Below, in pieces: positions 3,066 through 32,542 of a DNA stretch of 32,542 nt. A program made the translations under genes and the position numbers. Source of the stretch: Gammaproteobacteria bacterium (lineage in GTDB: Bacteria; Pseudomonadota; Gammaproteobacteria; SZUA-229); the NCBI GenBank assembly GCA_029879605.1, contig JAOUQA010000001.1, forward strand, positions 1-32,542, in the 5' to 3' direction. Every line of letters starts with the position of its first letter. Position 1 is the first letter of the stretch. A model generated the notes under the pieces. It saw only the letters and a list, made by a program, of their open reading frames with translations. It searched no databases and was not told the origin of the DNA.

Positions 3066-3105
3066 GATTTATTAACTAGAGTGTCTCACTGAATAGCGAC
3101 TGTTT

Positions 3106-4869: not shown

Positions 4870-4960
4870 TCTTGGGCATTTGGATTAGTGTCCACATATA
4901 TATGAGGACGCATGTCAAATAAGATAAATATAAATAACACTCTATTATAATTTTAAAAGA

Positions 4961-5518: not shown

Positions 5519-5550
5519 AATAGAATTCAGCATTATTGAAGGTAATTTCA

Positions 5551-6735: not shown

Positions 6736-6787
6736 TTTCTTTAAAAAAATATCTTTTTGACATTCGTCTTATATTCTCTGTTTATAT

Positions 6788-8551: not shown

Positions 8552-8572
8552 TAACTTTTTAGGATTCGATCA

Positions 8573-9340
8573 ATGGAAAAAATAAAACAAGCGCTCGATA
8601 GAGCCAAAAAACAAAGAGGTGATACACAAAGTGCTCGAATGAGCATGGATTGGTCGCCTGTTAAATATGATGAAACAAAGGCAGTAAAAAGTTCAAAAGA
8701 GAGTATGCAGAAGAATAGAATATCTGCTGCTTTAGAGGATGATAAATACAAAGATGCATATGATATTCTTGCAGTGCAGGTGTTGCAAAGAATGGAAGAG
8801 CATCGTTGGTCTACATTGGCAGTGACTAGTCCAGTTGGTGATGAAGGAACAACTACAGCTGCTATTAATCTTGCAATTAGTATTGCAAAGGAAGTTGAGT
8901 ACTCAGTTCTTCTGGTAGATGCAAATTTAAGGAATCCAAAAGTGCATGAATACTTTGGCGTAAAACCAAAGTATGGTCTATGTGATTATTTACGAAGTGA
9001 CATGGAATTGTCAGATGTACTTTATAGGCCTGAGGAGATAGAGCATTTTATTATTTTGCCAGGTGGTGCGCCAATATCTAGTTCTGCTGAGATGATGGGA
9101 TCTCCAAAAATGTGTGGACTCGTAGAAACTTTAAAAGATCATTATCCAAAAAGAATTATACTATTTGATCTTCCTCCAATACTTGGAACGGCTGATGCAA
9201 TGTCTATCGCTCCTTGTATTGATGCATCACTTTTAGTGATTGAAGACGGTGTTACTAAGCAATCTGACCTAAAGAAAGCGGTAGATATTTTGTCAGTAAC
9301 AAACATTATTGGCTCAGTATTGAATAAAGCTAGATATTAA
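8573..9340 (+). CDS. epsG: BY-kinase-like P-loop ATPase partner of EpsF (EpsG type), with a degenerate Walker A
   Basis: It shows MinD/BY-kinase architecture. The Walker A-like segment is VTSPVGDEGTTTAAINLA (8822-8870), the Walker A' is LLVDANLRNPKVH and the Walker B is IILFDLPPIL. It lies immediately downstream of epsF. AGGA is present upstream of ATG 8573. Confidence 0.8.
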   Translation: MEKIKQALDRAKKQRGDTQSARMSMDWSPVKYDETKAVKSSKESMQKNRISAALEDDKYKDAYDILAVQVLQRMEEHRWSTLAVTSPVGDEGTTTAAINLAISIAKEVEYSVLLVDANLRNPKVHEYFGVKPKYGLCDYLRSDMELSDVLYRPEEIEHFIILPGGAPISSSAEMMGSPKMCGLVETLKDHYPKRIILFDLPPILGTADAMSIAPCIDASLLVIEDGVTKQSDLKKAVDILSVTNIIGSVLNKARY

Positions 9341-9465
9341 ATCTTTAGATGGTGGTAATATTATTTGTTTTTATACATATATTAATTCTAGATTGGGATA
9401 AAGCTTTGTGGTTTTCAGGTCTATTATAATGATGTATCTATAAAGCCTTCTTATTTTTATATACT

Positions 9466-11193: not shown

Positions 11194-11328
11194 GTCGTTA
11201 TAGAGGCAGCGGCTTTTATAAAGAGAGACGCCGTAGTAGCTAATATGATGGCAAAAGTTATTAATATAACGGTACTACTAATATTTGTTGTTTAAGAATA
11301 ATTATGAATATATTGGATGTTTAATATA

Positions 11329-17279: not shown

Positions 17280-18386
17280 TTACTGGAGTTGTTCTTTAGA
17301 TAGCTTGCAGTATAAGATCTCATATGATGCGTACTGATTTAGTCCAAATGTTGGGTTTGAGCGCTGTTCCTGAGGAGAGTCACCGCTGTACATTTTAATC
17401 CGTATCGGCTTCATTCCTCTATTAAGTAGCTCACTATATAAATCATTTATAACCCGTTTCCTGTCAATAAATTCCTGGTCTGTATCGCCTGAGCCTATTG
17501 TGGTTATGAAGTCTGCCTGAGAATCTATAACACGGCCAATACTGCTTATATAGCCGGGTATATCCGTATAAGCCCTGGGCTCAAGTCGGTATGCTGTTAT
17601 TAATGTTCTGGGTTTGAGTGCATTACATGCAATTGCCTCTGAAACTTCATCAAGGCCGATGTATACGTCTTTGTTAATAGCATGGATATTTTTCTGGCTA
17701 TTAAGGTGCTCATAAGTGTCTTTCATATTTATATCATTATCAATTAGCACGATGTCATAGGCATGTGATTGAATCGTGCTCAGCTTGATAGGGGCGCCAC
17801 TTGTCAAAGGATTCATTGCAATATGTGGTGTTAAGTGAGTTGCAACCCGGTCTCGGATACCGATGGAGCTTCCGGTTGACAGTTGATAGTGCTCTGGAGC
17901 TATAGTTAGTAGACCGAGAATTTTTAATGTCTGTATGACTCGAATAGTGTCTGCATTATTGAGCCTTACCGCCATATTCTGCCCCAGAGTTGGCTGCGTT
18001 TTTATGGCACTAGTGATGGCCATGTTTAAAAATTCATCTGACATGCTGATATCAACTGTACTAAGGGGAATTGACCAGCCGTTAAAAACTTCACAGCTTG
18101 CTGCAAGATTAACGCAGGTAAATAAATGGTTAGATCTAACAGGTTCAACGGAAGCATCGATTAAGTTATCTTTACTAAGTAACTCTAATAAATTATTTCC
18201 CAGAATGGCCGAGCGTCTCTCATGTAGGAAGGCATTGTAATTAGCAAATAATGGTGCAATGCTCGCCCCCGCCCTTGATTGAAATAAATTAATTAGCATT
18301 TTAAGCTCATATGAATAGCCTTGAATGGCAAGCTTTAAAATATCATTTATTGACAGGCGTTCGTCATGTGACATGTCTATTTCCAA
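17280..18386 (-). CDS. Hypothetical protein (368 aa), no recognisable family
   Basis: A long uninterrupted ORF with no TM or signal peptide, 37 bp downstream of and co-directional with the TPR-sulfotransferase at 18424-20604. I found no catalytic motif I can name. Coding status is inferred from length and operon position. Confidence 0.6.
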   Translation of the reverse strand: MEIDMSHDERLSINDILKLAIQGYSYELKMLINLFQSRAGASIAPLFANYNAFLHERRSAILGNNLLELLSKDNLIDASVEPVRSNHLFTCVNLAASCEVFNGWSIPLSTVDISMSDEFLNMAITSAIKTQPTLGQNMAVRLNNADTIRVIQTLKILGLLTIAPEHYQLSTGSSIGIRDRVATHLTPHIAMNPLTSGAPIKLSTIQSHAYDIVLIDNDINMKDTYEHLNSQKNIHAINKDVYIGLDEVSEAIACNALKPRTLITAYRLEPRAYTDIPGYISSIGRVIDSQADFITTIGSGDTDQEFIDRKRVINDLYSELLNRGMKPIRIKMYSGDSPQEQRSNPTFGLNQYASYEILYCKLSKEQLQ

Positions 18387-18423
18387 AAAAGACTGAAATG
18401 CTGTTTCAACAGTGAGTGAGGAT

Positions 18424-20604
18424 TTAATCAGCTTCGTTGAGTGCTTTCTCTAAGGGTTTAAGCTGGGATGTATAGTGCTTCCATTTTTCTATAGAGCTAG
18501 TATAAATAGGTTTATTAACCTGGTCATAACTGGCTGTTCTTACAACACGATCAGACTCGTAATAACGTAGACACTGCTCATTCCATTCTAGCCCGCAATA
18601 CTCAATCATTTTGCGTGATACTGCTTCAGTATTAGCCACCAGATCTTCGTACACAACCTCAAGGAAGGGGATATTGTCGACATCTCGATAATGATGCATC
18701 AGGTGCTTGTAGGCTGAGTAATACCTGCCAAGGTTTTCAAGATTGTAGGCGTAGTCGTGATGGCCTGCGAATTCCTGGAAATAGATCGACAAACAAGTAT
18801 CCATAGGATTACGTACGCAGTGAATGATACGGGCATCTGGAAATAGCATCCTGATAAAAATAATATGCTGGAAATTCTGTGGCATTTTATCAGTCAAAAT
18901 ACTGATACCTGCGGGCAAACTGTTGGTAAACTCTTCGTATGCAGACAATGTTTGATTAATATGATCGGCAGTTACACGCGCCAGGCATTCAGGATAAGTG
19001 CCACCTATGCCGTCCATAGAAGGAAGGCGTCTTATAATAGAAGGTATCTCGTTACGCTCATCGCCAGCAAGTGCCTGTGGGTGGCTTGAAATAATCTGTT
19101 CTACCAGACTGGTGCCTGAGCGTGGCATACCTACGATGAAAACAGGTCGTATACGCGCTGTTGTGTTAATTTCGCGTGGTTGTTTAGCCAGTGATGTTAT
19201 TTCCGAACTAGCTAGTTGATTAAATAGTTCGATGGTCTTAGCGTGATCGTAACTACAGCGTTTCAGTTCATTGGCTTTCTGTATAGTGTCAAATGCAGAC
19301 TGGTAGTTATGCAGGCGATCATGCAGTCTGCCAAGGGTAAATAATAGATCTCGACGGTATGAAACGCTCAAATCCGCTCTTTCCAGTGCTTCATTGATGC
19401 TGGCTATAGCATTTTCACATTCATTATATTTATGGCACTGGCGTCCAAATACATTTGCGAGCGTTGCCGGCACTTTGCCATCTTGCATTGATGATTTTAC
19501 TATCTGGTAGGCATCATCGTGTTTACCCAGCCTCTCCAGTAGGCTTGCTTTTGTTCCGAGTATTTTCGAATCATCGGGCATGCTCAAAGATAGAATCTCA
19601 AGTTCTTTCAAGGCCTCTTCATGTCGCGATGCGCTGGCAAGTGATGTGACCTTAAACAGGCGGGCAACTTTGTTATCGGGATCAAGATCCAGAGCCCTGT
19701 TACAGCAATCTACTGCCTGGTTTGGCATACCATATTCACAATATAACCGAGCCAGTTCTCCGAGGGCTTCCAAAGGTTCGCTACTTTTATCAACAGCCTG
19801 TTTCAAATAGGTGATGGCCTGTATGTAATCGCCCTGACGTTCCAGGATATCTGCAATATGAAGGTAGGAAAAGACAAAATTGGGATACTTATTGATGATG
19901 CTCATTAATAGCTTATAGGCTTCATCATCCCTGCCTAATTTAATCAGGCAGTATGCATAAGTATCTACAGCGCGATAGTTATCAACTGCCTCTGTCACCA
20001 GTGGCTGCAAGGCTGACAGGGCAGCATCAGATTGGTCCTGGGCAGACATTGATTTGGCCATGCCAACAATGGCTTCCTGATTGGAGGTATTCAGCTCACA
20101 GGCTTTTTTGTAACACGCTTCAGCTTCCTGATATTTGGCTAGTGCATATTTGGCATTGCCTAGATTAACTAAGGCATCTACATTGGTTGGCACTATTGAT
20201 ATGGCTTTTTGGCCCCAGTGCTCAGCCTCATCGAAACGTTTTAACTGGCCTGCGAGACCGGTAATAAACAACAGGGCCTCATCATATTCATCATCACGCT
20301 CGACGGCTTTCAGAACGCTTTCATAGGCTGCTTCGATCTGTCCTGTTCGGTGTAGCAGGTGAGCCCTGGTTAAATAGGCCTCAACATAAGTTTCATCCAG
20401 CTCGATGGCCTTATCCGCGCACTTAAGGGCTTCATCTGTTTCACCTGCCTCACCTTTCAGGGCGGCCAGGGTCAACCAGTGTTCTTCATTGTTGCTATCC
20501 ATATGGCAGAGCCTTGCATAAAGGTCTTTGGCCTTATCCAGTTGGTTGTTGATCAGGCAAGCCTGGGCTTGCTCAGCAAGATTTACAATCGAACTATCGT
20601 TCAT
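18424..20604 (-). CDS. TPR-repeat protein with C-terminal PAPS-dependent sulfotransferase domain (paralog A)
   Basis: ORF 18424..20631. The likely start is ATG 20604 (MNDSS...), with GGAG 9 nt upstream. The N-terminal ~480 aa are TPR repeats. The C-terminal domain has the 5'-PSB loop RPVFIVGMPRSGTSLVEQIISSHP, the 3'-PB region ARIIHCVRNPMDTCLSIYFQ and the tail RTASYDQVNKPIYTSSIEKWKHY. Confidence 0.85.
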   Translation of the reverse strand: MNDSSIVNLAEQAQACLINNQLDKAKDLYARLCHMDSNNEEHWLTLAALKGEAGETDEALKCADKAIELDETYVEAYLTRAHLLHRTGQIEAAYESVLKAVERDDEYDEALLFITGLAGQLKRFDEAEHWGQKAISIVPTNVDALVNLGNAKYALAKYQEAEACYKKACELNTSNQEAIVGMAKSMSAQDQSDAALSALQPLVTEAVDNYRAVDTYAYCLIKLGRDDEAYKLLMSIINKYPNFVFSYLHIADILERQGDYIQAITYLKQAVDKSSEPLEALGELARLYCEYGMPNQAVDCCNRALDLDPDNKVARLFKVTSLASASRHEEALKELEILSLSMPDDSKILGTKASLLERLGKHDDAYQIVKSSMQDGKVPATLANVFGRQCHKYNECENAIASINEALERADLSVSYRRDLLFTLGRLHDRLHNYQSAFDTIQKANELKRCSYDHAKTIELFNQLASSEITSLAKQPREINTTARIRPVFIVGMPRSGTSLVEQIISSHPQALAGDERNEIPSIIRRLPSMDGIGGTYPECLARVTADHINQTLSAYEEFTNSLPAGISILTDKMPQNFQHIIFIRMLFPDARIIHCVRNPMDTCLSIYFQEFAGHHDYAYNLENLGRYYSAYKHLMHHYRDVDNIPFLEVVYEDLVANTEAVSRKMIEYCGLEWNEQCLRYYESDRVVRTASYDQVNKPIYTSSIEKWKHYTSQLKPLEKALNEAD

Positions 20605-21158
20605 ACTCAAGACTCCGAACCGCACTGACAAGATACTATATAAGCGGTGCGCATAATGTTAATTTTGAGGCTGGATATTAATACACGGCAGTGCTGCCAC
20701 TATGGATGGTGCGCATTATGCTGTTTCTACGTACTAAAGCCATTATAATTTTTGGCGTATATTACCACGTTTGGCGGCAAAAAATTTGTCTTCAGGCCTC
20801 CTGAACGTCGGTTTTTAAGACAAACACAGACAGTTTAAGCCGATTTTGGTCCATTAAATAATGATTGGCTCCCCTGAAAATGCAGAATAATCTACTGATA
20901 ATCAGGGTGGGGCGGGTATTATCTGCAGTGGGCACAGGCAAAGTTTTTGAGGGTTCGGAATTCTTTCCATTTCTCAAATTAACCATATAAAAGCCGTATG
21001 TATAAGTAAAACATATATAAAACAAATAGATATAAGTTATAATTTATTTAATTTATTAAGTAATGATGTGTCGATTTTATTTACATAGTGTGGGATTGGC
21101 GCTGATCTAAATTCAAAATGAAATGGTAACTGCTTGATATCAGTTGGGGAATATTAAT

Positions 21159-21174
21159 TGGCATACGATTTGCT
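21159..21174 (+). promoter_or_regulatory. Sigma-54 (RpoN) promoter, -24/-12 elements TGGCAT-N7-TTGCT
   Basis: TGGCATACGATTTGCT matches the TGGCAC-N5-TTGCW consensus with the exact GG-N10-GC spacing (GG 21160-21161, GC 21172-21173). It lies about 78 bp upstream of the PEP-CTERM gene start. A sigma-54 activator (prsR) is encoded in the same locus. Confidence 0.7.
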
Positions 21175-21189
21175 TGTATAAGCACTGAC

Positions 21190-21201
21190 ATATGATCATA
21201 T
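21190..21201. promoter_or_regulatory. Perfect 12-bp palindrome ATATGATCATAT just downstream of the sigma-54 promoter (candidate operator; contains GATC)
   Basis: It is directly readable: ATATGA followed by its reverse complement TCATAT. It sits about 17-28 bp after the -12 element, at the predicted start of the 5' UTR. Any function is inferred only. Confidence 0.3.
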
Positions 21202-21251
21202 CTAAAAATGTCGACAAAAATTATTAATAGTTATTTCGAGGTAATCAAAAA

Positions 21252-21812
21252 ATGAAAAGATCGTTACTAGCAACAGCCGTTGCTTTATCACTGGGTGTAA
21301 GTGCAACCGCTGATGCGGGTACTGCCGGTTTAACTGGCGTATGGACAGGTACTTACAGCTTCGCAATGTTCTCACCAGGTTTTGCCCCAGTAGGTGCTCC
21401 AACAGCTCCACAGGCTTGGTCATGGGATTTCGGTGCTGGCACAATCACAATTGCTAACACCACTACATTCTACGCTTCTGTATGGACAGCTCACAATGTA
21501 ACCTTCGTTGACAATGGTGATGGTACTTACGGTAACCCAACTCCAGGTGTTACTCCTAACATGCTGTTCGACTGGAGTGTTAACTTGAACATTCCTGTTG
21601 ATGCAACTTGGGATGTTACAGACAACGGTAACGGCACTCTGACTGTTGCTTCTGTTTCTACAACCATCATGCCTTCTTCAGCTGCATTCCCAGGCTTCCA
21701 CCCAACCTTTACAGGTACTCTGGGTTCTGCAGTGCCAGTTCCAGCTGCCGTTTGGTTGATGGGTTCTGGTCTGATCGGTCTGGTTGGTGTTGCTCGCCGC
21801 CGTCGCAGCTAA
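21252..21812 (+). CDS. PEP-CTERM sorting-domain protein (exosortase A cargo), secreted, Thr/Gly-rich
   Basis: It has a signal peptide MKRSLLATAVALSLGVSATADA. The C-terminal PEP-CTERM tripartite signal lies at 21732-21809: the VPVP motif, the hydrophobic helix AAVWLMGSGLIGLVGVA and the basic tail RRRRS. GAGG lies 10 nt upstream of the ATG. Codon choice is strongly biased (GGT, ACT, GCT, TTC, TAC, AAC, CGC). Confidence 0.9.
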   Translation: MKRSLLATAVALSLGVSATADAGTAGLTGVWTGTYSFAMFSPGFAPVGAPTAPQAWSWDFGAGTITIANTTTFYASVWTAHNVTFVDNGDGTYGNPTPGVTPNMLFDWSVNLNIPVDATWDVTDNGNGTLTVASVSTTIMPSSAAFPGFHPTFTGTLGSAVPVPAAVWLMGSGLIGLVGVARRRRS

Positions 21813-21860
21813 TAACTTCGTTATTGGTTGTATCCGGGGGTAACTTCGGAAAGACAGAAA

Positions 21861-21893
21861 GGCCTCGTCGCAAGACGGGGCCTTTTGTTTTCT
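21861..21893 (+). terminator. Rho-independent terminator after the PEP-CTERM gene
   Basis: The stem GGCCTCGTC (21861-21869) pairs with GACGGGGCC (21874-21882) across a GCAA loop, giving 9 pairs including one G-U. The run TTTTGTTTTCT follows. An upstream A-run (AGAAA) would allow bidirectional function. Confidence 0.8.
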
Positions 21894-21988
21894 ATCGGTC
21901 ATATTTTGTTAAACTGTTTGCCCTCTGGGGCTTATCGGTAATATTGTCTGCCTCGTCATAGCCAACAGATAACCGTCGAGATTTTATT

Positions 21989-23872
21989 TTGGACCTTTCT
22001 AGATTACAAAAAGCGGAAGTATTGCTCGGAAAGGGCAAGTTGAAAGAAGCCGAGGCCCTGCTGGTTAAATTTGTCAAACAGTATGGGCAGGCGCAAAATG
22101 CCTGGTTGATGCTGGCCTCCATATATGGCCAAACCGGGCGCTACGACCAGGTTGCGATGGCCTGTAACAAGGTTATTGCGCTCAATCCCAATCATCCCAT
22201 GGCGCGTTCATTGCTCGGTAGTGCCTGCATTTTTTTAAACAGGCCGGATGAGGCTATCGAGCACCTTCAGGTTGCGCAGCAACTGATTCCCAATAATCCC
22301 GGTATTATGAATAACCTGGCCAATGTTTACTTTGTCCTGGAGAAAGTGGCAGAGGCAGAGCACTGGTTCACAGCAACGCTCAATATTGATGCGAGCCATG
22401 CCCAGGCTAATTTTGGTATGGGTAACTGCTGTCTGGCAAAAAGCCTGTGGGGTGAGGCCGTGCAGTATTACTTGAAGGCTTATGACGCCATGTCAGATAG
22501 CTATGACATCAACATGAGCCTGGGTAAGGCTTATGTCAATCTTGCCCGTCTTGATGAGTCGATGGAGTGCCTGAGCAGGGCGGCCAAACTCACTGAGCAG
22601 CCATCTGATGCCTACCACGGTCTCGCGCATGTGGCCTTGCTCAATGGTAATCTTGATATGGCCCTGGCGTATATCGAACAATCGCTGAAGCATCAGCCAG
22701 ATAATATAGGTGCATTAGCAGAGCAGGCTGAAATCCAGTACAGGTTGGGTAATATTGAGCTGGCGCATGAGCAGATTCGTCGCCTTGTTGACAGTGGTAG
22801 TGCAGTGTCGAGTGTTGTCCTGACCTGGTCTAACCTGAGCCGGCATTTTGATGAATGCGATGAAGTTAAAAAGCATGCTCACTTACTGCTCGATGCGGGC
22901 ACTATCGGTAAATCTGAGCAGATTTCACTGCATTACAAACTGGGCAAACTTTACGATATGGATGCTGATTTTGATAAGGCGTTTTATCATTACCAACAGG
23001 CTAACCAGATTATACAGAACAACTTTGACCGCGACTTTCATGCCGCCATGATCACTAGCCTGATAGAAAATTTTGACAGGGATAAGATTGAGGGTTTATC
23101 GCACACCAGCTGCACAGATGAACGCCCTGTCTTTATCATAGGTATGCCCCGTTCTGGCACCAGCCTTGTTGAGCAGATCCTGTCTAGTCATCCGGATGTT
23201 TATGGCGCGGGTGAGCTAAATGACATTAAGGAGCTGGCCTGTCAGGCGCTCGCTGATACCGTTGTCGACGATGAATCTAATCGCTTTATAAATATAAAAA
23301 AGGAAAAACTGGAAGAGCTGGCAGAGGCCTATTTATCTCGAATCTCGGAAATGGCGGGCTCGGCAATACGGGTGACGGATAAAATGCCGGCCAATTTTTT
23401 ATGGCTTGGCTTAATCAAGCAGCTTTTTCCCAGGGCGCGAATCATACACTGTCGGCGTGATCCAAGAGATAGCTGCCTGTCTATCTTTTTTCAGGAGTTT
23501 AGTCGTGGTGGGCATGAATACGCCAACGATCTGGCCGATGTCGCTTTTTATTATCGTGAATACCAGAGATTGATGTCGCACTGGCAACAGGTTCTGGATT
23601 TGCCGATACTGGATGTGAACTATTCAGATCTGGTTCTGGATTTTGAAGGCTGCGTCAGAAATATCATTAAGTTTCTTGATCTGGGCTGGGATGATGCCTG
23701 TCTTAAATTCCACAAGTCTGATAGAGCTATTGCTACCGCCAGTTGGGACCAGGTGCGACAACGTGTCTACACAAAATCACTTGATCGTTGGAAAAATTAC
23801 AGTGAGCACATTACGCCCTTGCTTGATGTATTTGGCAACGATGACCTGCCGAAAAAATTTCAGCCAACATAG
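21989..23872 (+). CDS. TPR-repeat protein with C-terminal sulfotransferase domain (paralog B)
   Basis: TPR repeats begin at the first residues, so the TTG start at 21989 is needed to keep the first repeat. The sulfotransferase motifs are RPVFIIGMPRSGTSLVEQILSSHPDVYGAGEL, ARIIHCRRDPRDSCLSIFFQ and ATASWDQVRQRVYTKSLDRWKNY. Confidence 0.85.
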   Translation: MDLSRLQKAEVLLGKGKLKEAEALLVKFVKQYGQAQNAWLMLASIYGQTGRYDQVAMACNKVIALNPNHPMARSLLGSACIFLNRPDEAIEHLQVAQQLIPNNPGIMNNLANVYFVLEKVAEAEHWFTATLNIDASHAQANFGMGNCCLAKSLWGEAVQYYLKAYDAMSDSYDINMSLGKAYVNLARLDESMECLSRAAKLTEQPSDAYHGLAHVALLNGNLDMALAYIEQSLKHQPDNIGALAEQAEIQYRLGNIELAHEQIRRLVDSGSAVSSVVLTWSNLSRHFDECDEVKKHAHLLLDAGTIGKSEQISLHYKLGKLYDMDADFDKAFYHYQQANQIIQNNFDRDFHAAMITSLIENFDRDKIEGLSHTSCTDERPVFIIGMPRSGTSLVEQILSSHPDVYGAGELNDIKELACQALADTVVDDESNRFINIKKEKLEELAEAYLSRISEMAGSAIRVTDKMPANFLWLGLIKQLFPRARIIHCRRDPRDSCLSIFFQEFSRGGHEYANDLADVAFYYREYQRLMSHWQQVLDLPILDVNYSDLVLDFEGCVRNIIKFLDLGWDDACLKFHKSDRAIATASWDQVRQRVYTKSLDRWKNYSEHITPLLDVFGNDDLPKKFQPT

Positions 23873-23935
23873 ATTAAAATTTTATAATCCTGATTTTCCT
23901 TACCTTGTTATTACGCGCTGAGATTTTACCTGCTT

Positions 23936-25798
23936 ATGTCTAATTCAAAATCAAGTATGCATCCAAAATTGGCAAAGGTGCAGCTATTGATACAGTCAGG
24001 AAAATACGCTGACGCTCTTATACTGCTCGATAAGGTTAGCAAAAAAGACCAGAAGAATGCAGATGTATGGTTTATGCAGGGTGCCATACTGGGTAATGTC
24101 GGTAGATTTGAGGAAGCGGTGCAATGTCTGCAGAAGGCCATCATGTTCAGGCCGGGACATGCGCTCAGTTATTTCAACCTTGGCAATGTTCTGAGCAGTC
24201 AGGGTAAGTTTATAGATGCAGCGGCAATGTTTTCAAAGTCCTTGTCGCTGGGTATGAAAAATCCTGAATTGCTACGTGCACTGGGTCGTGCAGAAGTTAA
24301 CAGTGGTCGACCGAAGCAGGCTATTAGCGTGTATCAGGAGTATCTTAAACTGGTGCCTGATAATTTGGATGTTCTGGGTAATCTTGCTGCCTGTTATTTT
24401 CATGCTGGCGATCTCAATGAAGCGGTAGAGGCCTATAAGCGTGTACTTGGTATTTCCAGGGATGCGAGATACCTGAATGGTTTAGGTGCTGCGCTGTGTC
24501 AGCAGGGTTTGTTCGAAGAGGCTATTGCAGTGCAGCGCGAGGCTGTGCAAATGCAGCCGGATAATATCATTGCTTACTCAAATCTTCTGCTAAGTTTGAA
24601 TTACCTGCCGGATATTTCGGCCAGGACATTGTTTGAAGAGCATCAGGCATGGGCGCAAAGTTGCCGTATTAATAAAGTCGATTTGATTGCGAGATCAAAG
24701 CAGCCTGATCGTCGTTTACGAATAGGTTATGTCTCGCCAGACTTTCGTATGCATTCGGTGGCCTATTTTTTTGCACCACTACTGCAGCATCATAATGCGG
24801 AGCATGTAGAGACGTGGTGTTATGCAGCATCACCACGTGTAGATGAAATCACCCGGCGTCTACAGGCTATGGCCGACCACTGGTGTGATATAAGTGGTCT
24901 GGACAATGCCAGTGCGATCGAGCAGATTCAATCGGATAAAATTGATATCCTGGTTGATCTTGCTGGTCATACCGCAGGTAATCGAATAACAATCTTTGCC
25001 GCCAGGCCCGCGCCGATACAACTGACATGGTTAGGTTATCCAGCGACAACGGGGCTGTCGGAAATTGATTATCGGGTTACCGATGTTATTGCAGATCCGC
25101 AGGGACAGGATGAATTTTATAGCGAAAAGCTCTACCGTTTACCTGGTTGTTTCCTGTGCTATGAGCCGTATAACAATAGTCCTGATGTAGCGCTACCGCC
25201 AATCATTGAAAAAGGTTTTGTTACTTTTGGTAGCTTTAATAACCTGGCAAAAATTAATCTGGATGTAGTTGCGGTATGGGCGAGATTGTTGCACGCAGTA
25301 CCGGGTTCTCATTTGCTGATAAAAAATCCTTCTCTGACAGACCATGCAACAGCAGAGCGTTATCTAAATTTATTTAAGCAGCATGGCGTTACAGAAGACC
25401 GTGTTGAATTACTGGGTCTTGCGCCTACAACTGAAGAGCATCTGAAAACCTATAATCGAATCGATATTGCGCTTGATACTTTTCCATACAATGGGACGAC
25501 AACAAGCTGCGAAGCATTATACATGGGAGTGCCTGTAGTTACGCTAACAGGCCATACTCATGCCGGTCGTGTTAGTACCAGCTTATTATCGTCACTTGGT
25601 CTGCGTGATCTTGCTGCGACGACTGCAGATGAATATATTGATATTGCTGCAAGCCTGGCAGCGGACCAGGTTCGGTTATCCGAGCTGCGCTTGACGCTAC
25701 GGCGACGTATGTCTGAATCACCGCTAAGTGATGGTAAAACTTTTGCGCACAAAATAGAGCAGGCCTACCGTGCAATATGGCAGTCATATTGCTCGTAG
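23936..25798 (+). CDS. TPR-repeat protein with C-terminal GT41 (O-GlcNAc transferase / SPINDLY-like) glycosyltransferase domain
   Basis: The N-terminal ~230 aa are TPRs. The C-terminal hallmarks of bacterial OGT/SPY-family proteins are present: LRIGYVSPDFRMHSVAYFFAPLLQHHN, DILVDLAGHTAGNRITIFAARPAPIQLTWLGYPATTG, FGSFNNLAKIN and IALDTFPYNGTTTSCEALYMGVPVVTL. Confidence 0.85.
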   Translation: MSNSKSSMHPKLAKVQLLIQSGKYADALILLDKVSKKDQKNADVWFMQGAILGNVGRFEEAVQCLQKAIMFRPGHALSYFNLGNVLSSQGKFIDAAAMFSKSLSLGMKNPELLRALGRAEVNSGRPKQAISVYQEYLKLVPDNLDVLGNLAACYFHAGDLNEAVEAYKRVLGISRDARYLNGLGAALCQQGLFEEAIAVQREAVQMQPDNIIAYSNLLLSLNYLPDISARTLFEEHQAWAQSCRINKVDLIARSKQPDRRLRIGYVSPDFRMHSVAYFFAPLLQHHNAEHVETWCYAASPRVDEITRRLQAMADHWCDISGLDNASAIEQIQSDKIDILVDLAGHTAGNRITIFAARPAPIQLTWLGYPATTGLSEIDYRVTDVIADPQGQDEFYSEKLYRLPGCFLCYEPYNNSPDVALPPIIEKGFVTFGSFNNLAKINLDVVAVWARLLHAVPGSHLLIKNPSLTDHATAERYLNLFKQHGVTEDRVELLGLAPTTEEHLKTYNRIDIALDTFPYNGTTTSCEALYMGVPVVTLTGHTHAGRVSTSLLSSLGLRDLAATTADEYIDIAASLAADQVRLSELRLTLRRRMSESPLSDGKTFAHKIEQAYRAIWQSYCS

Positions 25799-25828
25799 AG
25801 GATTGTCCTCAGTGACTTGCCTGTCGTG

Positions 25829-27454
25829 CTAGTAATGAAAAGCCTTAATGTATGGTTCGAGTATCGGCAGAACTGATTTTATCTGGGTTTTATAATTGCG
25901 CCATCTGCCCATGGACTTTGAATAGATCGGGGAGGTGATGGCGCTGTAACTGGGTGTTCTTACGTCACGCTTACTAGCATGTTCAAAGTAGTTTAGAACG
26001 GTGTCGTCCCATTCTTCATCGGTAAACTCGACAAGTTTGCGTGCTTCAGTTTCTAAATCATCGACCATATCTTCATAACGTACTTCCAGGAATTCCAGGC
26101 CAAGAACGGATTGATAATGTGCCAGTAAATCCATGGTCGCAGCATAAAATTTTGAGCTCTGCTTAAGTGAGAGAAAATTAACCATTGACTGATTTAGCTG
26201 AAATGGTTGCATGAAACAGCTAAGACAACAGTCGCGTGGGTCACGTAAAACGACAATGATACGTGCATCGGGGAATAGCCTGTAAACCATGCCCAGGTCA
26301 ATAATGTTAAGAGGTAGTTTATCCAGTAGTCTTTTGCCTTCTTCGGGTTTTCCTATCATGGCATCGACCAGTGTCCAGTAACGTGCCCTTAGTGTTTTCA
26401 GTTCATCGTCACACAACTTATTAAGATCTTCTGGATAGCGAAAAGGGCGGTTCAGTAGCATGGGTAATTCGCTGATCAGACGACTCAACACAGGCTGTTC
26501 ATCACTGGGAACAATTGAATCGAGGGAGGCCAGCACCTGTTCTGTCAGTGTTGTACCTGAGCGCGGGAAGCCGACCAGGAATATCGGTGATGGTTCATCA
26601 TTATCCTGAACTTCATTGTCCCAGCCTTCTGTTCTGGCAGGGGTAAACCAGTGCATGTGCCTGTTAATCTGGTGAATAACATTTCCTTGCTCCGCCTGTT
26701 CGGGTGAAATTGTATCTGCCAGGGTCTTATTGCCAGTATCAAACGATTCATATGCCGCTGTATAGTCGCCCATTCGATCTAACACATCACCCAGCTCGGC
26801 TGCCAATGTTGCAATCTGCAGAGGGGGGAGGCTCTTATTTAATTCAGTCATAAGACGGAGACGGGCATGTTCAAGATTGCCTGCACGCTTATCCAGTTTT
26901 GCTATTATCAGGTTGGCACGTACATGGCCGGGGCTTATATTAAGTGCCTTTTCTGCCTCAGAGCGAGCGTCTTCCAGTTGATTGCTATGCTCAAGTGCAA
27001 CAGCCAGTTGGCAATAAATATTGGCATCAGCGGGTGCATATTTTAGTGCTATGTGACAGGCGTCGATCGTTTCCAGAAACTTACCTGAAGCGAGTAGTGC
27101 TATTACCAGGCTTCGATGGGCATCGATATGGTTTTCCCGTAGATCAATGGCATGCTGTAAATTTTTGATAGCGAGATCTGTCCAGCCCCTGTTGAGCCAG
27201 ATTCTACCTAAGTGATAGTGAGCATCAGCTGAGTCAGGATTAACAGCAATGGCCCTTTCTAGGCAAACTATTGCAGATTCAACCTGGCCAAGTTGCAGCA
27301 TGCATAAGCCCTGCATCAGCCATGCTTCATCATCCTGGGGATTTATTTTGGTTATTTTCTGGAAAGCGGCGCCAGATTTTTGATATTCCTGGCTAGAAAA
27401 AAACTGGTATGCGGTGACTTTATCCGCGTTGTCGGGTGGTTTCATATTGTTCAT
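25829..27454 (-). CDS. TPR-repeat protein with C-terminal sulfotransferase domain (paralog C, the most divergent)
   Basis: ORF 25829..27511, with probable starts at ATG 27454 (MNNMKPP) or 27445. TPRs occupy the N-terminal ~290 aa. The sulfotransferase motifs are SPIFLVGFPRSGTTLTEQVLAS, ARIIVVLRDPRDCCLSCFMQ and RTPSYSAITSPIYSKSMGRWRNY. Confidence 0.8.
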   Translation of the reverse strand: MNNMKPPDNADKVTAYQFFSSQEYQKSGAAFQKITKINPQDDEAWLMQGLCMLQLGQVESAIVCLERAIAVNPDSADAHYHLGRIWLNRGWTDLAIKNLQHAIDLRENHIDAHRSLVIALLASGKFLETIDACHIALKYAPADANIYCQLAVALEHSNQLEDARSEAEKALNISPGHVRANLIIAKLDKRAGNLEHARLRLMTELNKSLPPLQIATLAAELGDVLDRMGDYTAAYESFDTGNKTLADTISPEQAEQGNVIHQINRHMHWFTPARTEGWDNEVQDNDEPSPIFLVGFPRSGTTLTEQVLASLDSIVPSDEQPVLSRLISELPMLLNRPFRYPEDLNKLCDDELKTLRARYWTLVDAMIGKPEEGKRLLDKLPLNIIDLGMVYRLFPDARIIVVLRDPRDCCLSCFMQPFQLNQSMVNFLSLKQSSKFYAATMDLLAHYQSVLGLEFLEVRYEDMVDDLETEARKLVEFTDEEWDDTVLNYFEHASKRDVRTPSYSAITSPIYSKSMGRWRNYKTQIKSVLPILEPYIKAFHY

Positions 27455-27682
27455 GCGATAGATTTGCAGCGACAGGTTTTTTGGAAATAGACTCAAATTT
27501 TCCAGTACCATTATATAAGAATTTTACTCTGTTGTTTTGCATGATTTTTACTGAGAATACGGTATTTTCGTTGTTATAGAGGATTTTATGAACGGTATTG
27601 CACCTGCTCTGATACAATTGCAATTTTTAGAGTATTCATGTGCAACAAAGGTTATCTTGATTTTACGGGTGGGATTTTCTAA

Positions 27683-29572
27683 GTGAACGTTAGTTCTTTC
27701 GAAGATATTGCAGCTGCGAAGCAGCAGGCGTTGGTACTTTGCCAGCAGGGTGATTTTGTTCAGGCAAAAAAATTACTCGATCCATTTTTTCAAAGTGGTC
27801 GGATGGATGCACAGGCATACTCTATGCTTGGGCGCATCAATTGGCAATTAGGCTATGCTGAAGAGGCCGTGCTGTGTTTGCAGGAGACCGTTAAATTTCA
27901 GCCAAATTCACCTGATATACACTATGCCCTGGGAACAGGCCTGTCTAAACTGGGTCGTTTGCCTGAGGCAGAGGCCAGCTTTAATAAGGTTCTGCAGTTT
28001 GATCCGACGAATATACAGGCGGTGCTGGAGCTGGCTATTGTCGAATTTAGTCAGCAAAAGCTGACAGAAGCAGAAGCTCACTTTAAGCAGGTTATTGAAC
28101 ACGATCCAAACATACTGAAGGCGCTGATGGGTCTGGGCAGGCTGTACCAGTTATTAAATAAACCGGAATTTGCAATTAATTATTATAATCGTGCGCTTGA
28201 AATTAATCCTGAAATTTCAGATGCGCACTATCACCTTGGTACCATTTACCTGGGCCAGGGGCAGATTGACTTAGCTGAAGACGCGTACAAAAAGGCGCAA
28301 ATGGCAGACCCCATGAATGTTGCTGTACATATGGAAATGGGCCAGCTGTATATGACCACAAATAAAATTGACCAGGCCAAGGAATCGTTTCAGAAAGCAC
28401 TTTCAATCCAGCCGGATAACCTCGATGCTATTGCCTGCGAAGCCCAGTTATATGAGCAGCTAGGCGATATAGATGCAGCGCAGGAGCGGGTTAGGCATTA
28501 TATAGAGCAGGGCGTCAAACACGTTGGTGTAGGTATTTTATTTTCTAAAATCTGCAAGCACTCTAATAGCTGTGAACAAGCAGTCGACTATCTCGAAGAT
28601 TTGATTCTTGATGCAGAAAAAAATGGCACTGGAAAAACCAGCAAAATATATTTTGCCCTGGGCAAGCTTTACGACCAGCTTGGACAATATGACAAGGCCT
28701 TTTCCTGTTTTAAGAAGGCGAATGATCAGAAGCAGGATACTTTTAATACAATCGAACACACCGGTTGTATCAGTACTTTAATTACAAGCTGCGACTGGAA
28801 CTTTTTTATGCAGGCGCCGCGCTCTACACAAAAAACAGAGCGCCCGGTGTTTATCGTTGGCATGCCAAGGTCGGGTACAACATTAACAGAGCAGATTTTA
28901 TCGAGCCATCCAGACGTTTACGGTGCGGGTGAAATTATCACGTTCCCCAATATTATAAAAAATCTATCGGCATATCTTGGTGCGGGTACAGCGTATCCAG
29001 GTAATTTATCGAACTTAACGGTAGAAATTCTCGATACACTGGCGGCCACGTATCTCGATGAAATAAACCAGCTTAACGACACAGCTTTGCGTATCGTTGA
29101 CAAAACATTAGCTAATTTCCTCTACCTTGGTTTGATCTCGCTGATGTTTCCCCATGCAAAAATTATTCACTGTAAACGTGATCCGAGAGATACGTGCCTG
29201 TCTATCTATTTCCAGAATTTTGACGAAAGCCACAATTACGCAACGCGCCTGGAAAACCTTGGTTTTTATTACAAGGAATACGAACGTGTTATGCAGCACT
29301 GGAAAAGCATACTCAGGGTTCCGATTTATGAGGTTCAGTATGAAGAGCTGGTACAAAACCAGGAAGCCATATCACGTGAATTAATCGATTTTATTGGGCT
29401 TGAATGGGATGAGCGGGTGCTCGATTTCCACAAAACTAAACGTAGTGTAGTGACGGCCAGTTATGACCAGGTACGCCAGAAAATGTACACAAGATCGACC
29501 CAGAGATGGAAAAATTACGAAAACCATATCGATGACCTGGTGCGGACACTGGGGATGGAAAAGGATAAATAA
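27683..29572 (+). CDS. TPR-repeat protein with C-terminal sulfotransferase domain (paralog D)
   Basis: The GTG start at 27683 is needed to retain the first TPR. The motifs are RPVFIVGMPRSGTTLTEQILSSHPDVYGAGEI, AKIIHCKRDPRDTCLSIYFQ and VTASYDQVRQKMYTRSTQRWKNY. It is divergent from paralog C. Confidence 0.85.
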   Translation: MNVSSFEDIAAAKQQALVLCQQGDFVQAKKLLDPFFQSGRMDAQAYSMLGRINWQLGYAEEAVLCLQETVKFQPNSPDIHYALGTGLSKLGRLPEAEASFNKVLQFDPTNIQAVLELAIVEFSQQKLTEAEAHFKQVIEHDPNILKALMGLGRLYQLLNKPEFAINYYNRALEINPEISDAHYHLGTIYLGQGQIDLAEDAYKKAQMADPMNVAVHMEMGQLYMTTNKIDQAKESFQKALSIQPDNLDAIACEAQLYEQLGDIDAAQERVRHYIEQGVKHVGVGILFSKICKHSNSCEQAVDYLEDLILDAEKNGTGKTSKIYFALGKLYDQLGQYDKAFSCFKKANDQKQDTFNTIEHTGCISTLITSCDWNFFMQAPRSTQKTERPVFIVGMPRSGTTLTEQILSSHPDVYGAGEIITFPNIIKNLSAYLGAGTAYPGNLSNLTVEILDTLAATYLDEINQLNDTALRIVDKTLANFLYLGLISLMFPHAKIIHCKRDPRDTCLSIYFQNFDESHNYATRLENLGFYYKEYERVMQHWKSILRVPIYEVQYEELVQNQEAISRELIDFIGLEWDERVLDFHKTKRSVVTASYDQVRQKMYTRSTQRWKNYENHIDDLVRTLGMEKDK

Positions 29573-30020: not shown

Positions 30021-32542
30021 ATGTTATATAAAAAAATGAATGGTCTTATCTCGGCGAAGTCGATCGCTGTTTGTCTGCTAGCCCTGACATCACTACCCAA
30101 CAATGCCTCTGCCGCAACACATACCTTTAGTTCAGGCAATTTCACCATGCTTACTCCTACGGGAGCGCTTACCGGTGGTGCCACTGACGTCAATGGTAGT
30201 TTCGATGACTCAAAAATCTGTGATAGTGTCGCCTGTACAGACGTTGACGGTATCACGCTGGCCTCGACACAGCCCTTTTTGGGCCCCACCTGGACCGCGC
30301 ATCATGCCAGGGTCTTTGGTCCCGGTACCTATACGGTCGATACTGACTGTGATGGCACGCAGATTGCCGCTGGCACCACCTCCTGTCCCGCTAATGGCAC
30401 CACCGATACCATCGAGGGGCCTGACCTGACCTTTACCGTTAATCCCGGCCAGCTAGGCGCTCACATGCTGTTCGACTGGAGCACATCGACGAATATCGAC
30501 GTGGCCGTGGTCTGGAACTATAACACCGACTTTAATTCATCGTTTAACACAGCTGGCGGCAGCATTACCCCGGTGATCTATAATGGCGGCTGTCCTGCTG
30601 GCATCTACTGTGACGCTACCATGACCCTGGTGCGTGCCTGGAACATTACGTCTACTGATGGTAACGGCAATAACATTCCCGGCATTCCAATGGTCGATGG
30701 CCCATTCCCCAATTTCCACGCCAACTTCAACCTGGACATGACCGTGGCCTATAACCCGGTCGACGTGACCGATGATACAGCGGACACTGTCAATGGCGTT
30801 GCGGTGATTGATGTGCTGGCCAATGACTCGGATGCCGTCGATGGTACGCCGCCAGACCCGGCCGCTGTTACCGTCAATATTACTAGCGATGGCGCCCAGG
30901 CAAGTGTCGCCTCAACGGTTAACCCTGCGACAGGGGCCATTACCTATACTGCAAATACGGCTTTTTCGGGTGTTGATACGATTAAATACACCGTCACAGA
31001 TAGTGATACCAATATTTCTGCCAAGGGTAGTGTAACGATCACGGTAACCCAGACACCGGTGGCCAGTAATGTCACCTTCAGCACCAACACCGATGTACAG
31101 AAGGTAATTGCAATTACCGATTTAGGTGCTGGATCTACAGCGATTGCGACAGATGGTGATACCGCAACAGCCTCGCTGACCTTTGTCAACCTGGGCGCAA
31201 CGGCCCAGGCAGGCAATGGCAGTACTGTAACGGGTAATGGCTTAAGTTCATTAACCTATACACCACCGACGGGTCTAAATGGTCTTAGCGACACCTTCAC
31301 CTTCCAGGTGACCGATGGCGTCAATACCTCTGCAGCCATGACTATGACCATTGACGTCAACAACGTGCTGCCAGTTGCCGCTACGGACTCAGCCGGCGTG
31401 CTACCAAGTAATGCAGTCATTATCACTGTTCTGGACAATGATAGTGATGCCGAGGACGGCCCCACACCAGGTTCGCTGTCAGAACCGACTGTTACGCTGG
31501 CAATTAATACACAGGGCACTAAGGGTACAGCCGTGGCAAATGGTGATGGCACCATTACCTATACAGCCGGCACGATTACGGTTGATCCAACCCCTGACTC
31601 GTTTACCTATGACCTGACCGACAGCGATGGCGGCACCAGTACCGGTACTGTGAATGTGACCATTTCAAATACGGTCAATAATGCACCGATAGGCTATGAT
31701 TCTGCCTTCACCACGGATGCCGGCACAGCGCTGCAGATCAATATCGATACTTCAACCGGTGGTGGCCCGGGCGGCATTATCGCCGATGATAATGATACTA
31801 TCGTACAGCCCCTTACCTTCACCGCCGTATCAGCCACCTCGGCGCAGGGCGGTACAGTGAGCGTTGATGGCACCGGTAAAATCATTACCTACACGCCGGC
31901 AGCGGGATACAACGCGCTGGATGCGGCTACCGATAGCTTTACCTTTAAAGTCAGCGACGGTATTGGTACCTCGGCTGTCGCCAATACCATGACGATTACC
32001 GTGAATGCCCTGCCGCCTGTGGCCAATGATGATCTGGGTAATACCATGTTATTGACTGACGGTACTCTGAGCATTGATGTGCTGGCCAATGACACCGATG
32101 TGGAAGATGATGCGACCGCTACCGCATTGACAATAACCACTGGTTCTCTCGCGGGTGCCGATGCCGGCGATGCCGTCATCAACGCCGGTAAGATCGACTT
32201 CACGCCAACGACTGTGGGCGCGAAGAGCTTTACCTATACCGTGACCGATAGCGATGGCTTTATCTCGGGCACTGCACAGGTGGATATTACGGTAACGGCC
32301 GCGCCCACGACATCCAATAAGACACTGTCGACCAATGAGGACACGGCGCTGGTGATTACCCTGCCGGATGCCACGATCGCCGATGACCTGGACGGTGACA
32401 CGCTGGCCTTTGATGTTGTCGATGCGAGCTCAACACAGGGTGGAACTATCGTTGTAAGCACAACCACAACTGCTAATGACACACTGACCTATACACCAGC
32501 GGCGAACTATAACGGTTTGGGTGATACCTTTACCTTCTCGGT
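30021..32542 (+). CDS. Large secreted tandem-repeat (cadherin/Ig-like, tandem-95-type) adhesin-like protein, 5' part only; open to the window end
   Basis: It is absent from the ORF track because there is no stop codon in the window. I read the frame codon by codon from ATG 30021 for 840 codons without a stop; the in-frame stop upstream is TGA 29991. GAGG lies 9 nt upstream of the ATG. The signal peptide is MLYKKMNGLISAKSIAVCLLALTSLPNNASA. An N-terminal ~240-aa Cys-containing domain is followed by at least 6 repeats of ~100 aa with recurring VLANDSD/VLDNDSD/VLANDTD and TYTP..G..G.D.FTF.V.D motifs. Confidence 0.8.
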   Translation, partial: MLYKKMNGLISAKSIAVCLLALTSLPNNASAATHTFSSGNFTMLTPTGALTGGATDVNGSFDDSKICDSVACTDVDGITLASTQPFLGPTWTAHHARVFGPGTYTVDTDCDGTQIAAGTTSCPANGTTDTIEGPDLTFTVNPGQLGAHMLFDWSTSTNIDVAVVWNYNTDFNSSFNTAGGSITPVIYNGGCPAGIYCDATMTLVRAWNITSTDGNGNNIPGIPMVDGPFPNFHANFNLDMTVAYNPVDVTDDTADTVNGVAVIDVLANDSDAVDGTPPDPAAVTVNITSDGAQASVASTVNPATGAITYTANTAFSGVDTIKYTVTDSDTNISAKGSVTITVTQTPVASNVTFSTNTDVQKVIAITDLGAGSTAIATDGDTATASLTFVNLGATAQAGNGSTVTGNGLSSLTYTPPTGLNGLSDTFTFQVTDGVNTSAAMTMTIDVNNVLPVAATDSAGVLPSNAVIITVLDNDSDAEDGPTPGSLSEPTVTLAINTQGTKGTAVANGDGTITYTAGTITVDPTPDSFTYDLTDSDGGTSTGTVNVTISNTVNNAPIGYDSAFTTDAGTALQINIDTSTGGGPGGIIADDNDTIVQPLTFTAVSATSAQGGTVSVDGTGKIITYTPAAGYNALDAATDSFTFKVSDGIGTSAVANTMTITVNALPPVANDDLGNTMLLTDGTLSIDVLANDTDVEDDATATALTITTGSLAGADAGDAVINAGKIDFTPTTVGAKSFTYTVTDSDGFISGTAQVDITVTAAPTTSNKTLSTNEDTALVITLPDATIADDLDGDTLAFDVVDASSTQGGTIVVSTTTTANDTLTYTPAANYNGLGDTFTFS
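30753..32542 (+). repeat. Coding tandem repeats (~300 nt / ~100 aa units, at least 6 copies, diverged) within the adhesin gene
   Basis: Repeat boundaries recur at ...ITVT / ...TIDV / ...VTIS / ...TITV / ...DITV. DNA-level recurrence is visible, for example GATGTGCTGGCCAATGAC at about 30808 and again at about 32076. The units are diverged rather than identical. Confidence 0.7.

Follow-up and report, generated by a model that had tools for sequence, protein, structure and literature searches.

PEP-CTERM proteins, the cargo of exosortase systems, have long been suspected of being glycosylated and tied into the extracellular matrix, and to our knowledge no dedicated PEP-CTERM-modifying enzymes have been identified so far. 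Modification of secreted surface proteins in the cytoplasm is known elsewhere, as HMW1C (GT41) and the autotransporter heptosyltransferases glycosylate adhesins there before Sec export. Cytoplasmic sulfation of a secreted peptide is known from Xanthomonas, where RaxST sulfates tyrosines of RaxX (PMC4646787, PMC4892823). Here we describe a locus in a 32,542-nucleotide stretch of DNA, hereafter the window (positions 1 to 32,542, forward strand, of contig JAOUQA010000001.1, assembly GCA_029879605.1, from a gammaproteobacterium of SZUA-229). Four enzymes with tetratricopeptide repeats (TPRs) and a sulfotransferase domain (ST1 to ST4) and a fifth TPR enzyme with a GT41 domain (TPR-GT41) are encoded there around the gene of a small secreted protein with an exosortase sorting tail, which we call the cargo. 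On balance we favor reading positions 17280-29572 as a conserved cassette for cytoplasmic modification of the cargo before Sec export and sorting by the exosortase XrtD, and not primarily for sulfation of polysaccharide. What is new is the link of several sulfotransferases, as a conserved component, to exosortase cargo; the part families, and cytoplasmic modification of secreted surface proteins as such, were already known.

The best sequence and fold matches of ST1-ST4 were the tyrosylprotein sulfotransferases TPST1 and TPST2, which have a catalytic domain dependent on 3'-phosphoadenosine 5'-phosphosulfate (PAPS) and the same fold as predicted here. Identity to them was only 21-24%, and whereas animal TPSTs are type II membrane proteins of the Golgi with lumenal topology, the enzymes here are predicted to be soluble and cytoplasmic, carry a 300-500-aa N-terminal TPR array, and occur as four paralogues per locus; their acceptor need not be tyrosine. 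The likeness to RaxST is one of function and not by sequence comparison. SPINDLY, OGT, and the bacterial OGT homologues (T. terrenum, Xanthomonas) have the TPR plus GT41 architecture of the gene at 23936-25798, and their design, with a TPR array before the catalytic domain, is also used by the four sulfotransferases, but the partner here is an adjoining secreted exosortase cargo. We know of no bacterial GT41 that works together with sulfotransferases.

As in the HMW1C/HMW1 and heptosyltransferase systems, the gene of a cytoplasmic glycosyltransferase adjoins that of a secreted surface protein, but the GT41 here was not of HMW1C/NGT type, sulfation would be an added chemistry, and export would end in exosortase sorting instead of two-partner or autotransporter secretion. 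The XrtA systems of floc-forming Betaproteobacteria (PepA of Aquincola and Zoogloea) share with our locus the exosortase, the sorting tail, polysaccharide export genes, PrsK/PrsR/PrsT, and a sigma-54 promoter upstream of the cargo gene; they differ in that here the exosortase is XrtD, the tail is of the VPLPA-CTERM type, and the cargo domain belongs to an undescribed family. No TPR-sulfotransferase/GT41 cassette was found in the papers retrieved. The xss locus for synechan in Synechocystis unites polysaccharide genes, sulfotransferases, and a need for PAPS. That model fits a TPR-less 303-aa sulfotransferase encoded upstream of the window, but differs from ST1-ST4, which are encoded outside the glycosyltransferases, are not carbohydrate-type by nearest relatives, and travel with the cargo. 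Exosortase is mentioned in the synechan paper only outside the main text (PMC8205485). We found no literature linking sulfotransferases or GT41 to PEP-CTERM/exosortase systems, in agreement with a first-pass annotation of this DNA, which had held that sulfation was not established as part of an exosortase pathway.

Enzymes and cargo of the window

The window was mapped from its open reading frames (ORFs) together with Pfam and NCBIfam profile searches, and its cargo region comprised the following features.

17280-18386, minus strand: orf368, an orphan protein
18424-20604, minus strand: ST1, TPR plus sulfotransferase, 726 aa, divergent from the cargo gene (PF13469, E 3.5e-43)
20955-20969, plus strand: motif TCGGAATTCTTTCC (consensus TCGGAATTCTTTACA), candidate PrsR enhancer site, once in the window
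21159-21174, plus strand: sigma-54-type promoter (-24/-12), TGGCATacgatTTGCT, found by pattern search upstream of the cargo gene
21252-21812, plus strand: cargo, a 186-aa secreted protein (TIGR03370, signal peptide)
21857-21886, plus strand: strong intrinsic terminator hairpin directly 3' of the cargo gene (13-bp stem with 7 GC pairs, then a T-run)
21989-23872, plus strand: ST2, TPR plus sulfotransferase (PF13469, E 1.8e-46)
23936-25798, plus strand: TPR-GT41, homologue of SPINDLY/OGT-type protein O-glycosyltransferases (PF13844, 227 bits)
25829-27454, minus strand: ST3, TPR plus sulfotransferase, the most divergent paralogue (PF13469, E 8.4e-36)
27683-29572, plus strand: ST4, TPR plus sulfotransferase (PF13469, E 9.9e-46)
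30021-32542, plus strand: 5' part of a giant adhesin gene that runs off the contig (translation; Pfam Big_9, Cadherin_4/5)

The first-pass annotation had described four TPR proteins with PAPS-type sulfotransferase domains at these positions, and the profile searches bore this out (PF13469, E 3.5e-43 for ST1 to 9.9e-46 for ST4), with all of its listed motifs present. It had also placed them around the only PEP-CTERM cargo gene, and among the complete ORFs of the window a PEP-CTERM-like tail occurred solely in the gene they flank. The fifth TPR enzyme of the cluster, TPR-GT41, was absent from that annotation. All four sulfotransferases had N-terminal TPR arrays and a C-terminal Sulfotransfer_3 domain scoring 125-160 bits (cut-off 27), and no NCBIfam model reached its curated cut-off on them. 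The ST1 ORF extends to a TTG at 20631, and the start at 20604 (ATG) agrees with the public gene call; that of ST3 extends to 27511, and the start at 27454 agrees with orthologue lengths of 542-544 aa. From ST1 to ST4 the 5'-phosphosulfate-binding loops aligned as GMPRSGTSL, GMPRSGTSL, GFPRSGTTL, and GMPRSGTTL. The 3'-phosphate-binding segments in the same four-paralogue alignment were RNPMDTCLS, RDPRDSCLS, RDPRDCCLS, and RDPRDTCLS, and the tails were WKHY, WKNY, WRNY, and WKNY. Pairwise identity among the four was only 27-33%, and the patterns G[MF]PRSGT[ST]L and R[ND]PxDxCLS were invariant in them and in 45 homologues.

By sequence (phmmer), the nearest solved relatives of the sulfotransferase domain were TPST2 and TPST1 (E ~1e-11), followed by the sulfotransferase domains of polyketide synthases, with heparan-sulfate 3-O-sulfotransferase at E ~0.9. 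The last 309 aa of ST4, modeled with AlphaFold2 (mean predicted local distance difference test, pLDDT, 95.5), gave the same order in a Foldseek search of the PDB. Tyrosylprotein sulfotransferases took ranks 1-13 (TM-score 0.59-0.70), followed by the sulfotransferase domains of olefin synthase and CurM, Stf1, and cytosolic SULTs. There were 58 matches with E <= 0.001, and the top 50 all had the sulfotransferase fold, with three retinol dehydratase entries as the sole non-sulfotransferases and no carbohydrate sulfotransferase among them. Residues aligned with TPST2 Arg78, Glu99, Lys158, Arg183, and Ser191 were invariant in the four paralogues and the homologues, in an alignment that leaves Ser285 outside the aligned stretch; we take Arg78, Glu99, and Lys158 to be the catalytic residues of TPST2. 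No hydrophobic segment was found in the five TPR enzymes or in orf368 (maximum 19-residue Kyte-Doolittle mean < 1.5), and the five enzymes are predicted from their sequences to be soluble and cytoplasmic.

TPR-GT41, encoded between ST2 and ST3, had TPRs at residues 12-220 and a PF13844 domain far above the cut-off of 25 bits. Its catalytic domain was closest to Arabidopsis SPINDLY (E 6.6e-108), T. terrenum OGT (5e-92), and human OGT (1e-58). The solved GT41 relatives listed were all named as protein- or peptide-modifying enzymes or as adhesin glycosyltransferases. An HMW1C/NGT-type identity was ruled out, with 54 bits against a cut-off of 1000 on NF049992 and an HMW1C match of only 6e-12.

The cargo consisted of a Sec signal peptide, a compact all-beta domain, and a sorting tail, VPVPAAVWLMGSGLIGLVGVARRRRS, that passed the VPLPA-CTERM model (TIGR03370, 32.6 bits vs 25.35; Pfam PEP-CTERM, 20.9 vs 20.7). 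Apart from that tail, its family (~490 clusters, mostly 180-200 aa) had no Pfam domain and matched no NCBIfam model at cut-off. The AlphaFold2 model (mean pLDDT 84.6, core > 95) had no significant match in a fold search of the PDB (best E 0.04, TM-score at most 0.35) and weakly resembled small beta-barrels such as TbpB and LolA. Threonine made up 17.6% of the mature protein, which has NxS/T sequons at 69, 82, and 127. Of its tyrosines (35, 74, and 93), Tyr93 does not vary in the family and Tyr35 hardly does. The exosortase gene in the window, 18 kb from the cargo gene, completed the XrtD/VPLPA-CTERM pairing, with 559.7 bits on TIGR04152 (cut-off 400). The first-pass annotation had linked the locus to exosortase A. 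XrtA was ruled out, as the exosortase scored 174.4 bits on TIGR03109 against a cut-off of 208 and passed the XrtD model, and the system is one of XrtD and VPLPA-CTERM with PrsK, PrsR, and PrsT.

The giant adhesin, of > 1400 aa and continuing to L001:16538, had Big_9/cadherin repeats and two copies of a cargo-like beta domain, at about residues 30-250 and 960-1170; the cargo-like proteins of loci L004 and L006 matched it at residues 21-238 and 966-1169. The 186-aa cargo may therefore not be the sole relevant substrate, and the adhesin is a possible second one. The G+C content of the adhesin gene was 53%, compared with 34-49% in the rest of the window.

Conservation of the cassette and its tie to the cargo domain

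We searched for related cassettes by scanning species-representative genomes with an alignment of the sulfotransferase domain, and among contigs encoding cargo homologues; L-numbers are labels of loci from these two sources and from a metagenome scan. One gene order and orientation was repeated on many contigs of marine Gammaproteobacteria (L033, L040, L083/L084, L085, L086, L087, L088, and L172): orf368 (minus), ST1 (minus), cargo, ST2, GT41, ST3 (minus), and ST4. Leaving aside L172, where the cargo was 84% identical to that of the window, the enzymes and orf368 proteins of the named loci were 44-59% identical, and the cargo proteins 52-69% identical, to their window counterparts. In L033 and L088 the cassette was flanked by housekeeping genes, and no polysaccharide gene lay within 10 kb of it. 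TPR-GT41 was present in nearly every related cassette.

One-to-one orthologues of the window sulfotransferases scored 541-854 bits, compared with 135-402 bits for paralogues. ST1 orthologues scored 607-854 bits (paralogues 160-330), ST2 orthologues 541-642 bits, always from a gene directly downstream of the cargo gene, and ST3 orthologues 554-677 bits in L033, L040, and L086, with a gene for a 542-aa sulfotransferase in the same position in L172. As each of the four has its own orthologues far above its paralogues, they are ancient and non-redundant, which argues, as far as sequence goes, for separate specificities rather than redundancy. A recent tandem duplication was ruled out by the same scores, those of own orthologues being two to four times those of paralogues.

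Looser versions of the cassette had a cargo-domain protein and one or two TPR-sulfotransferases, with GT41 in two cases. L004, from the cultured Thiohalobacter thiocyanaticus Hrh1, contained four VPLPA-CTERM proteins, two TPR-sulfotransferases, and GT41; L006, from a betaproteobacterial metagenome-assembled genome (MAG), had no GT41 within the locus; and L010, from a Desulfocapsa MAG, had GT41 and a cargo with a classical VPEPAS PEP-CTERM tail. L002 and L003 were akin to these, but the adjoining VPLPA-CTERM protein matched in the sorting tail only.

Sampled from the side of the cargo, and so independently of the sulfotransferases, 15 of 19 loci carried a TPR-sulfotransferase or GT41, and for cargo homologues on long contigs a TPR-sulfotransferase and/or TPR-GT41 lay within 10 kb in seven of eight, a tandem cargo pair being the exception. 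The metagenome scan with the cargo alignment mostly returned proteins that matched in the VPLPA tail only, and these were used as a control group: the enzymes were found at 8/11 cargo-domain loci and 2/10 tail-only loci (Fisher p = 0.03). The association is therefore with the cargo domain and not with exosortase signals generally.

The control elements upstream of the cargo gene were also conserved. The TCGGAATTCTTTACA motif lay 290-340 bp 5' of the cargo start in the window, L033, L040, L083, L086, L087, and L088, and ~200 bp upstream of the sigma-54-type promoter; PrsR is its inferred binder. A strict sigma-54 pattern was found upstream of the cargo genes in 9/15 related loci. These elements fit published work in which PEP-CTERM genes were RpoN-dependent and control by PrsK/PrsR was proposed (PMC9850573).

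Orf368, encoded next to ST1, had no match in Pfam, NCBIfam, or the PDB, and its homologues formed only 16 clusters in 5.8 billion sequences, all hypothetical and one from the cyanobacterium Microcoleus. Orthologues were found in L033, L083/L084, L088, L089, and L172, adjoining an ST1-type gene in each except L089, where none lay nearby. Orf368 may serve as one more component of the modification or as a chaperone.

Candidate substrates

For the substrate, the acceptor atom, the timing of modification, and the role of XrtD we propose the following series of steps. PrsK and PrsR, with sigma-54, would switch on the gene of the small VPLPA-CTERM protein. The TPR arrays of the five soluble cytoplasmic enzymes would bind the nascent or unfolded cargo before Sec export, and probably the related domains of the giant adhesin as well. 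TPR-GT41, being SPINDLY/OGT-like, would put a sugar on the cargo, and the four non-redundant TPST-like sulfotransferases would move sulfate from PAPS, supplied by the ATP sulfurylase/adenosine 5'-phosphosulfate (APS) kinase of the locus, to cargo side chains (Tyr, Ser, or Thr) or to the sugar installed by GT41. The modified cargo would be exported, and XrtD would cleave its C-terminal tail and anchor the protein at the cell surface or in the matrix. Sulfation of polysaccharide would more likely fall to the separate TPR-less sulfotransferase, of heparan-sulfate type, encoded upstream of the window. Cytoplasmic modification before export is the most economical order because the enzymes have no hydrophobic segments, the cargo has a signal peptide, and PAPS and nucleotide sugars are cytoplasmic.

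The first-pass annotation had taken a multiply sulfated exopolysaccharide as its conservative reading and action on proteins, or on glycans of the cargo, as the alternative. The alternative is the one favored by synteny, by the likeness to TPST, and by the presence of a separate carbohydrate-type sulfotransferase, and the exopolysaccharide reading is not. More tentatively, and with somewhat less confidence than in the cassette's role as such, we suggest that GT41 and up to four TPR-guided TPST-like sulfotransferases make sulfated glycoproteins of beta-barrel-like VPLPA/PEP-CTERM cargo and adhesin domains before Sec export and exosortase sorting. Such a pathway would belong to marine Gammaproteobacteria of the sulfur cycle, and Betaproteobacteria and Desulfobacterota would have it in looser form.

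Five enzymes and a single small, well-folded protein are named by the cassette as candidates, which makes the glycosylation idea directly testable. Should the acceptor of the sulfotransferases prove to be the protein or its glycan, bacterial protein sulfation would reach far beyond RaxST, its single known case, and the TPR-sulfotransferase family (> 4300 clusters) and the bacterial OGT/SPINDLY homologues would gain a first function. This would be the first exosortase-tied pathway of protein sulfation and, apart from RaxST, the first bacterial family of protein sulfotransferases. Biofilms of sediment and granules have highly anionic matrices, on which sulfated glycoproteins would also bear.

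Several points weigh against modification of the cargo. We know of no precedent for Sec export of a sulfated protein. The PDB is poor in bacterial carbohydrate sulfotransferases of the Sulfotransfer_3 type, so ST1-ST4 may have come out nearest to TPST in part because of what has been sampled. The cargo domain, predicted with confidence, is a compact beta fold and not a mucin-like Ser/Thr stretch, and the cargo has no acidic-flanked tyrosine of the kind typical for TPST, its most conserved Tyr lying in G-[TS]-Y-G. The TPR-sulfotransferase family itself extends through Proteobacteria, Planctomycetota, and others (clusters counted at E <= 1e-10), and about 65 of its 79 genome loci had no cargo or exosortase-related gene within 10 kb. 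Outside the cassette its neighbors were diverse (141 Pfam families among 106 proteins, the commonest, methyltransferases, in 5/106); with no Pfam family dominant among these 106 neighbors, they gave no functional clue for the wider family. A tandem pair of cargo genes on a different 97-kb contig of the same sample (L081:9364-10552) had no sulfotransferase or GT41 nearby. Gene neighborhood in any case indicates a functional link and not an enzyme-substrate relation, and the TPR-sulfotransferases could instead produce a sulfated polymer to which the cargo binds. The first-pass annotation had named genome-wide scattering of the paralogues as evidence that would count against its proposal. The wider family is indeed scattered among heterogeneous neighbors, but the four orthologue groups are tightly linked to the cargo.

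The L081 cargo paralogues were 184 and 183 aa long, with 68% identity between the 183-aa copy and the cargo of the window, and their genes adjoined a Leu/Phe-tRNA protein transferase gene and a FemAB-like gene. Both may be further substrates, encoded at another place in this genome or in a related one.

Polysaccharide genes and alternative roles

Genes 5' of the window were read from a 41.8-kb metagenome contig that contains it (ENA ERZ27296366, k141_2053239; L170), in which the window starts at position 7619. The remaining features were as follows.

L170:1140-2051, plus strand: TPR-less sulfotransferase, 303 aa, 6.5 kb 5' of the window, with GT2, GT4, methyltransferase, and acetyltransferase genes around it
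263-1489: WcaI-like GT4 (Pfam/NCBIfam)
1506-3065, plus strand: exosortase XrtD fused to an EpsI domain (TIGR04152; Pfam Exosortase_EpsH and DUF3485/EpsI)
3106-4740: WecA-like initiating transferase
4961-5518: Wza-like exporter
5536-6735: 399-aa ORF
6788-8551: chain-length determinant
8573-9340: tyrosine autokinase
9466-11193, plus strand: bifunctional ATP sulfurylase/APS kinase, predicted PAPS maker (NF004040, 782.5 bits, cut-off 669; Pfam ATP-sulfurylase, APS_kinase, PUA_2)
11317-13713, plus strand: PrsT, TPR lipoprotein of PEP-CTERM systems (TIGR02917, 344 bits vs 312)
13790-15856, plus strand: PrsK, sensor kinase of PEP-CTERM systems (TIGR02916, 734 bits vs 300)
15913-17268, plus strand: PrsR, sigma-54 activator of PEP-CTERM systems (TIGR02915, 703 bits vs 503)

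The gene at 9466-11193 had been described in the first-pass annotation as an APS kinase next to the sulfotransferases; it encodes both activities and lies 7 kb from ST1, not adjacent to it. The best solved relatives of the TPR-less 303-aa enzyme were an Alicyclobacillus sulfotransferase (9e-24), NDST1 (3e-18), and 3-O-sulfotransferases (1e-15), and not TPST, and it is likely, from this similarity and its neighbors, to be the polysaccharide sulfotransferase of the locus. It is both carbohydrate-type and embedded among glycosyltransferases, and the four TPR-sulfotransferases are neither. Adjacent to its gene, two ORFs (L170:2969-3562 and 3587-4426, minus strand) had sub-threshold Sulfotransfer_3 matches.

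The upstream block lends weight to a different role for ST1-ST4, in which they sulfate the exopolysaccharide or an undecaprenyl-linked repeat unit at several positions, the TPRs dock on the assembly machinery, and the cargo is merely co-regulated. The contig has a WecA-like transferase, GT2, GT4, a Wza-like exporter, a chain-length determinant, a tyrosine kinase, and a PAPS synthase, and Wza-like or chain-length genes lay near the cassette in L002, L006, L083, L095, L112, and L154. A multiply sulfated repeat unit would suit four distinct sulfotransferases, and exopolysaccharide clusters with several sulfotransferases are known, such as that for synechan (PMC8205485). We nevertheless regard this role as unlikely: the four genes adjoin the cargo gene and not glycosyltransferases, even where polysaccharide genes are missing within 10 kb (L033, L088), the nearest relatives of their products are protein sulfotransferases, and their constant partner is a GT41 whose solved relatives found are protein glycosyltransferases. 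The glycosyltransferase block, moreover, already has a carbohydrate-type sulfotransferase. With that enzyme encoded among the sugar genes, and the protein-type TPR-sulfotransferases and GT41 with the cargo, the locus appears to split the work.

Modification of other proteins is less likely again; by analogy with OGT signaling, these could be regulators in the cytoplasm or parts of the machinery for secretion and sorting. All of the enzymes are predicted to be cytoplasmic, and they would then share only a regulon with the cargo. Pairs of TPR-sulfotransferase and TPR-GT41 without a cargo gene (L021, L014, L043, L071), and the wide occurrence of the sulfotransferase family in genomes with no cargo homologue seen nearby, are consistent with such targets, but the ST1-ST4 orthologue groups are fixed in position around the cargo in > 10 independent loci, and the association tracks the N-terminal domain of the cargo and not its sorting signal. 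L021 (Thiogranum MAG) encoded two TPR-sulfotransferases and three TPR-GT41 proteins at 428-11228, with no cargo-family gene on the 12-kb stretch, which suggests that the two kinds of enzyme partner generally, beyond the cassette.

Action on a small molecule or lipid (a sulfolipid or other secondary metabolite), with TPRs that only oligomerize, we consider very improbable: the polyketide-synthase sulfotransferase domains of olefin synthase and CurM, and mycobacterial Stf1, were the next structural matches after the TPSTs, and genes for outer-membrane channels of the FadL/TodX-like kind, which pass hydrophobic compounds, were repeatedly found by the cassette (L004, L040, L083, L086, L087, L172), but TM-scores to the polyketide-synthase domains (0.51-0.57) were below those to TPSTs (0.62-0.64), no cassette had lipid or polyketide biosynthesis genes, and the constant GT41 and cargo partners would be left unexplained.

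Other genes recurred beside or within the cassettes. Those for the FadL/TodX-like channel were at L004:16731-18125, L040:10957-12261, L083:4316-5746, L086:2285-3703, L087:2405-3823, and L172:15048-16370, and the corresponding position in the window is taken by the 399-aa ORF at 5536-6735. An Rce1-like (CPBP) membrane protease of ~238 aa and a ~780-aa protein without a Pfam match were encoded beside cassettes in L004, L085, L086, and L087. Two cassettes contained genes for group II intron reverse transcriptase/maturases adjoining the cargo gene (L010:11715-13115, minus strand; L086:11139-12434, plus strand).

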